Shown here: positions 62,000 through 64,000 of the stretch, in pieces
Numbering within the stretch: position 1 is the stretch's first letter
Layout of the letters: the number at the start of each line of letters is the position of its first letter
IMG/VR virus record: IMGVR_UViG_3300042465_003139
DNA: 64,000 bases
Source of the DNA: an uncultured virus (IMG/VR IMGVR_UViG_3300042465_003139)
Taxonomy: Duplodnaviria; Heunggongvirae; Uroviricota; Caudoviricetes
Direction: 5' to 3' (one strand)
The notes under the pieces: model-generated
Seen by the model: only the letters and a program-made list of their open reading frames with translations
Database searches by the model: none
Told to the model about the DNA's origin: nothing
Program-made: the position numbers and the translations under genes

Positions 62000-62074
62000 G
62001 GGGGTGTAGTGCTAATGGGAACACATCTGGTTTGCAACCAGAAATTGAGAGTTCGATTCTCTCCACCTCCACCA
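62000..62074 (+). tRNA. tRNA-Ala(TGC)
   Basis: cloverleaf, G3-U70, anticodon TGC, CCA. Confidence 0.92.
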
Positions 62075-62096
62075 AAACATTTTTAAGGAGAAAGTA

Positions 62097-62228
62097 ATGA
62101 AGCGAAAACAGATCGCTAAGAAACGTAACCCGTTCGTTATCTTGGCGTTATTTAAAAAAGCGGGAGCGCACCGCAAGTCTAACAAGGCATTGCGAAAGGC
62201 GCAAAAGCAAACACCTTTGGGGGTATAA
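62097..62228 (+). CDS. 43-aa basic protein whose stop codon lies inside tRNA-Lys
   Basis: AAGGAG RBS; MKRKQIAKKRNPFVILALFKKAGAHRKSNKALRKAQKQTPLGV. Confidence 0.7.
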   Translation: MKRKQIAKKRNPFVILALFKKAGAHRKSNKALRKAQKQTPLGV

Positions 62229-62293
62229 CTTAACGGCTAAAGTAGTAGGCTTTTAACCTATTAATCAGAGTTCGATTCTCTGTGCCCCTACCA
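62219..62293 (+). tRNA. tRNA-Lys(TTT)
   Basis: cloverleaf, anticodon loop CTTTTAA, CCA. Confidence 0.9.
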
Positions 62294-62379
62294 TATAAAA
62301 ACACATTACGAACAGTATCGCTTTTTAGCAAAGCCTGTGCCAAAGTAGTCAGTCTAGGATAGTGTGTTTCTATATGGTA
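62289..62379 (+). ncRNA. fold-back trailer RNA
   Basis: TACCATATAAAAACACATTA / TAGTGTGTTTCTATATGGTA (one mismatch, one G-U). Confidence 0.55.
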
Positions 62380-62386
62380 TTAGTAT

Positions 62387-62475
62387 GGGTCTTGCCCCTT
62401 TCAGCGGACTGTAAATCCGTCGGCTTTGTTACGAAAGGAAGTTGCCACGTGGAGCGTTACCATCAAGACCCACCA
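62387..62475 (+). tRNA. non-canonical tRNA-Tyr(GTA)-like RNA lacking a D-arm
   Basis: 8-bp acceptor stem + A-CCA; GCGGA-CTGTAAA-TCCGT anticodon arm; T-loop AGCGTTA. Confidence 0.65.
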
Positions 62476-62598
62476 ATTCGCACCGTCAGGTGTGTCAATC
62501 CAGCAAAAGGTGCTGGCGTGTAGAATACGGCGCATCAACGATGTTGCTTTCGGTATCCGCGTAAGAGATACGGCTAAAGTTCGTAATGCCAAATATTA

Positions 62599-62673
62599 GG
62601 TCTTGAAGTGTTCATGGACGCACGTAGGCTTGTCACGCCTAAAGACGGGGATCGTTACCCCGCAGGACCGCCA
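62599..62673 (+). tRNA. tRNA-Asp(GTC)
   Basis: cloverleaf, G73, CCA; atypical A8 and T-loop ATCGTTA. Confidence 0.85.
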
Positions 62674-63599: not shown

Positions 63600-64000
63600 A
63601 TGAAAAAAATAATCGCAACTATACTCATGATGTTTTCTATGAGTGCAAATGCAATTACATTTTATGCTTATAACATTACACAACATCAACCAATTGTTGA
63701 TTCTGAAATTGGCATTGTTCGACCAATTGCAAGCATTACAAAATTAATGACTGCGATTGTAGTCTTAGAAAGTGGATTGTCATTAAATGAACGAATCTCA
63801 TACAAAGGAATGTTCTACTCTCATAAGAAATTTACTAGAGATGAATTATTGAATCTAATGTTGGTGAAGAGTGATAACAGAGCCGCAGAAGCATTAGCGG
63901 AAGGTATGGGTGGTAAGTTGTGGACGGTTTATCAAATGAATAAACGCGCAATGGCACTTGGAATGTATGATTCGAATTTTGATGATACTTCTGGTTTGAG
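63600..64000 (+). CDS. peptidase S11 D-Ala-D-Ala carboxy/endopeptidase (PBP7-like), runs off the window
   Basis: signal peptide MKKIIATILMMFSMSANA; RPIASITKLMTA (SxxK), KSDN (SxN), MNKRAMALGM..S.F.D.SGL. Confidence 0.88.
   Translation, partial: MKKIIATILMMFSMSANAITFYAYNITQHQPIVDSEIGIVRPIASITKLMTAIVVLESGLSLNERISYKGMFYSHKKFTRDELLNLMLVKSDNRAAEALAEGMGGKLWTVYQMNKRAMALGMYDSNFDDTSGL

Follow-up and report, generated by a model that had tools for sequence, protein, structure and literature searches.

Why would a phage place the stop codon of a small protein gene inside a tRNA? The question is raised by an open reading frame in the tRNA array of an uncultured virus, of which a stretch of 64,000 nucleotides (the window) was analysed. 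The window is T4-like, encoding a gp45 clamp, a gp44 loader, a family-B polymerase, a UvsX-like RecA and a DnaB-like helicase, as well as a ribonucleotide reductase, ThyX and a T4-type RNase H. Its array contains 14 tRNAs according to ARAGORN, including a tRNA-Ala(tgc) (62000-62074, + strand; Rfam 59.7 bits) and a tRNA-Lys(ttt) with anticodon UUU (62219-62293, + strand; Rfam 65.4 bits). The reading frame starts downstream of the first of these and runs into the second.

The phage gene and its junction with tRNA-Lys

The ORF occupies 62097-62228 on the + strand and consists of 43 codons followed by TAA. A Shine-Dalgarno sequence, AAGGAG (62085-62090, + strand), can be read from the sequence and is separated by a 6 nt spacer from the ATG at 62097. 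ARAGORN places the start of tRNA-Lys at 62219, and the TAA (62226-62228, + strand) therefore corresponds to bases 8-10 of the tRNA. The ribosome-binding site, the 43-aa ORF and the position of its stop within the tRNA had been proposed in a sequence-only reading of the window, and are confirmed by the sequence, ARAGORN and Rfam. The ORF is rich in lysine (10 Lys codons in 43) and enters both the acceptor and D arms of tRNA-Lys.

RNase P matures the 5′ ends of tRNAs, and can by itself separate the units of a tRNA precursor. The predicted RNase P cleavage site at the 5′ end of tRNA-Lys (62218/62219, + strand) falls within codon 41, i.e. 5′ of the stop. A cut at this position would leave 40 whole codons and 2 bases with the stop codon lost, and the predicted product is 40 aa long. 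Since the 3′ end of tRNA-Ala is only 22 nt from the ORF start, tRNA processing would define the start of the message as well, giving a mini-mRNA of roughly 145 nt (about 62075-62218) around the ORF.

The protein sequence is clearly conserved. Two alignments define a core, RN.FV..ALF.KAG.H.K..KA.R, that spans codons 10-33 (62124-62195, + strand). For 53 unique phage versions of this 24-codon core, the median dN/dS is 0.087 (1053 pairs), and the entropy is 1.05 at third codon positions vs 0.43 and 0.25 at the other two. The phage ORF is a genuine gene under purifying selection. It was found to have 27 homologs at 65-93% identity in a word-indexed protein search, while the full profile search retrieved 603 clusters at 50% identity with E ≤ 0.001, 80 of them with E ≤ 1e-10. 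Residues N11, G23, H25, K27, K30 and R33 are invariant in an alignment of 59 diverse members. The AlphaFold2 model computed from this alignment contains two short helices (residues 12-18 and 29-38) joined by the KAG.H.K loop, with a mean pLDDT of 78.

The ORF thus belongs to a large, very basic family without a name, with a core of ~40 aa. Searches of Pfam, NCBIfam and PHROGs returned nothing meaningful for this family (in Pfam, the phage ORF had no hit at E ≤ 1 and 28 family members had none at E ≤ 10), PDB sequences searched with the profile yielded no match, and literature searches found no paper on this small basic protein family. One lead, DUF7230 (Atlas rank 9, score 0.89, in 26% of one cluster), had neither Pfam support nor literature and was dropped.

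At the nucleotide level, the tRNA region gave no megablast match among deposited phage records, and a distant blastn search of the same records yielded tRNA-level matches only, with no close relative. Contigs from public RNA runs matched the tRNA parts of relatives, with none over 62139-62209. An Rfam match to tmRNA_permuted at 62047-62228 (22.4 bits, E 0.088), which starts in the 3′ part of tRNA-Ala, was rejected because its score is far under the gathering score of 47.

A conserved long stem follows tRNA-Lys (62289-62379, + strand), in which 62289-62308 pairs with 62360-62379 in the predicted fold. Its 5′ arm starts at the ACCA end of tRNA-Lys with the sequence ACCATATAAAAACACA..., and 53 of 58 unique related loci have this sequence with an inverted partner 20-130 nt downstream that matches at 13 or more of 17 bases. 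The stem may serve for 3′ processing of the module, or may mark the inverted ends of a small inserted element.

Further along, 62386-62476 resembles a tRNA: its acceptor stem has 9 bp, its loop reads CTGTAAA with a Tyr-like GTA, and it ends in ACCA. This element was called neither by ARAGORN, including its intron and relaxed modes, nor by Rfam. An RNA-library contig is identical to 62384-62475 with zero differences. ARAGORN also calls a tRNA-Asp(gtc) at 62599-62673, which Rfam does not list at E ≤ 1. Elsewhere in the window, the ORF at 55688-56155 matches Pfam Tad3, the Type I Thoeris inhibitor (E 3.8e-37), and is an anti-defence gene; an open-ended ORF (63600-63998), whose start resembles a signal peptide, lies just past the tRNA array and matches Peptidase_S11, a D-alanyl-D-alanine carboxypeptidase (E 2e-17).

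Signals between the core and the stop

The junction is not peculiar to the window. Scanning viral contigs yielded 183 relatives, and among the best 80 of these loci the ORF runs into tRNA-Lys(ttt) in 74. With duplicates removed, 57 of the 59 unique junctions from these best 80 enter tRNA-Lys(ttt), so homologs do keep the overlap, and the outcome that the sequence-only reading had named as damaging to it, homologs usually ending before any tRNA, was not what was found. All three reading phases occur across the 57 unique junctions (35/12/10), and the tRNA starts 45-71 nt past the invariant Gly codon (56 nt in 33 of the 57). No in-frame stop lies 5′ of the tRNA in any of these junctions; the first one is met 5, 7, 10, 13, 18, 20, 23, 27 or 77 nt into the tRNA, and the frame is open across the whole tRNA in three unique loci. 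Given the variable spacing and the use of all three phases, the C-terminal tails are whatever the tRNA happens to encode.

The six exceptions among the 80 loci are of two kinds. In two (L067 and L069) the ORF is closed by a TAA of its own, and a tRNA-Lys(ctt) follows after 143 nt; in the other four (L076-L079), visual inspection puts the end of the ORF in the 5′ half of a truncated tRNA-Lys whose 3′ part is gone. Upstream, the neighbouring tRNA varies between Ala, Gln, Arg, Gly, Ile, Asp, Cys, Met and Lys-ctt, or is missing, in these best 80 of 183 loci, and is often 17-26 nt from the ORF in the relatives. The downstream partner in the subfamily of the phage ORF is constant, and is tRNA-Lys(ttt). 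When an alignment of higher GC content was used for a further scan, 13 additional unique loci were found to end in tRNA-Lys(ttt), and the cultured cyanophage BUCT-ZZ01 carries a homolog, 47% identical, with its stop likewise inside tRNA-Lys(ttt). Literature searches found no paper on a phage gene with its stop inside a tRNA as a regulatory device.

Other phage members have stops of their own. This applies to the homologs of Acidovorax phage ACP17 and Variovorax phage V45v66, which have no tRNA nearby, and to five further loci (L209-L211, L237 and L242), again with no tRNA nearby. The ACP17 homolog (L081:1441-1644) is an open frame without an ATG, GTG or TTG start; it is unannotated in the record and begins directly after the stop of an upstream annotated CDS in another frame.

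A second phage subfamily has the core PRNYLVKLALFRKAGSH.KSNKA.RR and was represented by 42 loci in our scan, 31 of them unique. In most of these the ORF ends at a stop of its own, and the tRNA that follows differs from locus to locus. It was found that all 31 unique loci contain an uninterrupted stem of 15-26 bp whose 5′ arm begins 11-26 nt past the core. The stop codon lies between the arms in 5 of these, in the 3′ arm in 17 and after the stem in 9, and never before the 5′ arm. Long perfect duplexes are substrates of RNase III. For five loci of this subfamily (L153, L162 and L169-L171), the stem resembles the extended acceptor stem of a tRNA-like element, and an internal T-arm-like GGTTCGAA hairpin is seen by eye in the folds.

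The family also extends to bacterial chromosomes. A pattern scan of one genome per species gave 5 loci, two of which, in an Oxalobacteraceae MAG and in Niveibacterium sp. 24ML, have an ordinary chromosomal context. A terminator ahead of the stop was considered for these first two chromosomal loci and rejected, as the terminators there overlap the stop instead. An HMM built from the 59 diverse members matched 51 of 301 sampled genomes from the order of the Niveibacterium isolate, in almost every case with a single hit, and 25 of the 400 genomes that were scored from the class of this isolate; the corresponding numbers for Pfam ArfA in the same samples are 3/301 and 5/400. The 301 genomes include three unpublished ones (G029, G208 and G297), none of which matched.

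The 55 chromosomal loci examined are those for which the DNA was retrieved, 21 further order-level matches having been left out. A GC-rich hairpin followed by a T-tract is located inside the ORF, before the first stop, in 13 of the 55. One locus has a terminator spanning the stop, five have one after it, and the other 36 have none within 150 nt; looser settings revealed AT-rich intragenic terminators in two more (L111 and L114). Among 54 flanking Pfam-confirmed genes used as control, none has such a signal in its last 120 nt, with 4 after the stop and 1 spanning it. The odd hydrophobic tails of some products (FPPFVF, GFFI) correspond to the translated hairpin arm and T-tract. The same layout, with hairpin and T-tract before the stop, is displayed by Neisseria-type arfA loci recovered in the same search. 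tRNAs are rare in these surroundings, with a single tRNA-Arg near the homologs in 31 loci.

Time and again, then, the family has an RNA 3′-end-forming signal after its core and ahead of the first in-frame stop. Three devices can be distinguished from the gene architecture: the 5′ end of a tRNA, a long stem and an intrinsic terminator. The non-stop design is not universal within the family. The claim that tRNA maturation programmes a non-stop mRNA is, as far as gene layout can speak to it, well supported by the kept overlap and by the stem and terminator branches; the loss of the stop from the message stays a prediction.

Genomic partners and proposed function

In bacteria, the family has a partner of a different kind. 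The RNA ligase gene rtcB, recognised by Pfam and an RtcB HMM, is found within the 3-kb locus in 18 of the 55 cases, always on the same strand and always upstream. It is directly adjacent in 12 of these (gaps of 3-103 nt), present as fragments only in 1, and separated by a gap of about 0.7-1.3 kb in 5; it is absent from the 3-kb locus of the other 37 homologs. In 4 of the 5 gapped loci, a conserved protein of ~320 aa is encoded between rtcB and the small gene (L093:527-1501, L098:539-1501, L140:1640-2641 on the - strand, and L142:545-1489), with mutual identities of 36-81%. Three of the four were scanned against Pfam without a hit at E ≤ 1e-5, and no meaningful NCBIfam or PDB-sequence match was obtained for this protein. 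A search for rtcB in the phage window and in phage loci L001-L083 found none, and literature searches revealed no paper on a small non-stop gene behind rtcB.

Both ties point to an RNA-damage context, that to tRNA-Lys(UUU) in phages as well as that to rtcB in bacteria. RtcB and the rescue factor PrfH form a rescue-then-repair pair for ribotoxin-damaged ribosomes, as set out in the parts of PMC9304027 used here. PrfH and RtcB2 are encoded in one operon, and the small gene likewise follows rtcB in 18 of 55 bacterial loci. This operon partnership is seen for the bacterial homologs, but not in the phage window or loci L001-L083. Furthermore, PrfH is homologous to release factors and brings its own catalytic (GGQ) domain, while in the family protein, a peptide of 40 aa, no RF-1 domain is detected by Pfam. 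With respect to tRNA-Lys, the T5 tRNA-Lys counters AriB of PARIS by replacing the host tRNA-Lys destroyed by this defence nuclease (PMC11464382, in part). It is this very tRNA species that the phage ORF is always paired with, while the portion of the T5/PARIS work used here describes no coupled protein gene. A tblastn search with the 43-aa protein against 50,697 phage records gave no T5 match.

The closest parallels for the gene layout are arfA and brfA, which are made from non-stop mRNA by means of an RNase III site or a terminator (PMC6299226, PMC11633108, both in part). ArfA (PF03889), an alternative ribosome-rescue factor of Gamma- and some Betaproteobacteria that recruits RF2 to non-stop ribosomes and is synthetically lethal with ssrA, is likewise small and basic with a Gly-containing basic motif, and likewise has a 3′-end-forming signal before its stop, a feature that the family shares at the level of gene architecture. 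The ArfA product is held down by tmRNA, and by analogy the same gating may apply to the family. The sequence-only reading had gone further in suggesting an ArfA-like protein. A profile comparison of 210 family and 46 ArfA sequences by hhalign returned a probability of 0.32% (E 0.19), and Pfam gave no hit; there is thus no detectable sequence or profile similarity, and the family is an analogue rather than a member of ArfA. Differences also include its shorter core (~40 aa), its occurrence in phages, the use of a tRNA 5′ end as the signal, and the link to rtcB in bacteria. The basic Gly motif reads KGKGS in ArfA and KKGGSTNKK in ArfT (PMC6299226, in part). In ArfA it belongs to a basic C-terminal tail by which the empty mRNA channel is bound, and the resemblance of KAG.H.K..KA.R to the ArfA motif is one of composition only.

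BrfA of B. subtilis and ArfT of Francisella are release-factor-dependent mini-proteins, BrfA being the product of a non-stop mRNA and ArfT a protein of 40 aa with the motif KKGGSTNKK (PMC6299226, PMC11633108). Compared with the family by description only, from the parts of these sources used, they show that ribosome rescue arose several times, in mini-proteins that are unrelated to one another.

We propose the following course of events. The tRNA array would be transcribed as one precursor, which RNase P would cut at 62218/62219, maturing tRNA-Lys(UUU) and at the same time stripping the stop codon from the upstream mini-mRNA (about 62075-62218). Ribosomes reaching the end of this message would normally be resolved by tmRNA-SmpB, and the 40-aa product would be tagged and degraded. 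Untagged protein would accumulate once trans-translation is saturated, as might happen in an infected cell in which tRNA-Lys or mRNAs are cleaved by a host nuclease. The same would hold for the other two devices: since each signal is expected to give a stop-less message, tmRNA would mark the product for destruction as long as trans-translation can keep up, following the logic of ArfA and BrfA. By analogy with these factors, the protein may then act on stalled ribosomes as a back-up rescue factor. The basic Gly-containing segment KAG.H.K..KA.R is a candidate binder of the empty mRNA channel, with a host release factor presumably freeing the peptide.

The product of the ORF and the replacement tRNA-Lys may thereby constitute one counter-defence cassette. 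tRNA-Lys is a target of defence and phage tRNA-Lys an antidote, and the fixed pairing with tRNA-Lys(UUU) suggests a cassette that replaces the tRNA and frees the ribosomes. A logic in which any RNase P site will do does not explain this constant partner. In bacteria, the homologs would have the same role next to the RNA ligase RtcB. It should be added that ribosomes might terminate at the TAA ahead of RNase P cleavage, in which case an ordinary 43-aa protein would be made.

Taken together, we consider the family a tmRNA-gated back-up factor for ribosome rescue or for the response to RNA damage, coupled in phages to a defence-targeted tRNA-Lys, and give this reading a probability of about one half.

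Three other explanations were weighed against it. The one that survives best accepts tmRNA gating and the non-stop mRNA and places the protein elsewhere, as an accessory of RNA repair or an anti-defence factor. Its target could, for instance, be tRNA-Lys, which it might bind or shield, RtcB-type ligation, which it might assist, or an anticodon nuclease, which it might block. The exclusive link of the phage gene to tRNA-Lys(UUU), the presence of rtcB in 18 of 55 bacterial loci (4 of which also have the ~320-aa partner) and the failure of Pfam, the PDB profile search and the hhalign comparison with ArfA to reveal similarity to any known rescue factor all suit such a role. Nevertheless, we regard it as unlikely, given that the non-stop-mRNA products described in the parts of PMC6299226 and PMC11633108 used here are rescue factors only, that the protein is too small and too basic for tRNA mimicry, and that 37 of the 55 bacterial homologs have no rtcB in the 3-kb locus.

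Alternatively, the overlap could be a matter of plain packing, with an ordinary small protein ending at a TAA in the unprocessed tRNA precursor and an overlap that has no regulatory meaning, persisting only since overlapping genes separate with difficulty. Phage genomes are compact, and the 5′ region of the tRNA offers stops in all frames, as reflected by overlaps of 5-77 nt. What this account leaves unexplained is the lack of stops in the variable linker across 57 unique junctions, and the placement before the stop of a stem (31/31) or an intragenic terminator (13/55 vs 0/54 in the control genes), which makes it rather improbable.

The idea of a cis-acting sensor, a leader-peptide-like feedback loop in which translation of the Lys-rich ORF into the 5′ strand of the tRNA tunes the folding or maturation of tRNA-Lys to the supply of charged tRNA-Lys, draws on the physical invasion by the ORF of the very tRNA that reads its codons, but is very improbable as conservation covers the whole protein sequence beyond the Lys codons (core dN/dS 0.087, where a leader peptide or attenuator would keep regulatory codons only and act in cis only) and as stand-alone homologs without a nearby tRNA, in bacterial chromosomes (1 tRNA in 31 loci) and in phages, argue for a protein acting in trans.

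Meaning for phages and Betaproteobacteria

Returning to the reading of a tmRNA-gated back-up factor, the gating principle is already known; the protein family is not known to have been described, nor is its setting in viruses, the device made of tRNA and RNase P or the link to RtcB. A more far-reaching version, which we put forward tentatively and with less confidence than the general reading, is that the phage gene is the first virus-encoded alternative rescue factor and the first case of a non-stop mRNA made by tRNA maturation. According to this version, one RNase P cut would yield both a replacement tRNA-Lys(UUU) and a stop-less message, translation would be restored after the host has destroyed its tRNA-Lys, the same family would serve beside RtcB in bacteria, and three devices would have evolved for the same end.

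For bacteria, the presence of the family was compared with that of known rescue factors. A published survey of 1000 Betaproteobacteria reported arfA in 37 and arfB in 709. In our sample, an ArfB-like protein with a third RF-1 domain is encoded by 29 of 51 family-positive and 160 of 247 family-negative genomes, so that the family is not associated with genomes lacking such a protein (odds ratio 1.4, p 0.34). E. coli has both ArfA and ArfB, and because the two are carried together there, we take this co-occurrence result as neutral.

If the proposed reading is true, the principle established for ArfA and BrfA, rescue gated by failure of tmRNA, reaches viruses and a new, much larger family, and RNase P is to be counted, next to RNase III and terminators, among the agents that produce programmed non-stop mRNA. 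The family would then help to close a gap in the published survey, as a candidate extra rescue factor in Betaproteobacteria, found in 51 of 301 genomes of one order, as against 3 of 301 for ArfA. Phage tRNA-Lys genes, RtcB repair and ribosome rescue would, likewise, be parts of one response to the defence nucleases that cut tRNAs and mRNAs.
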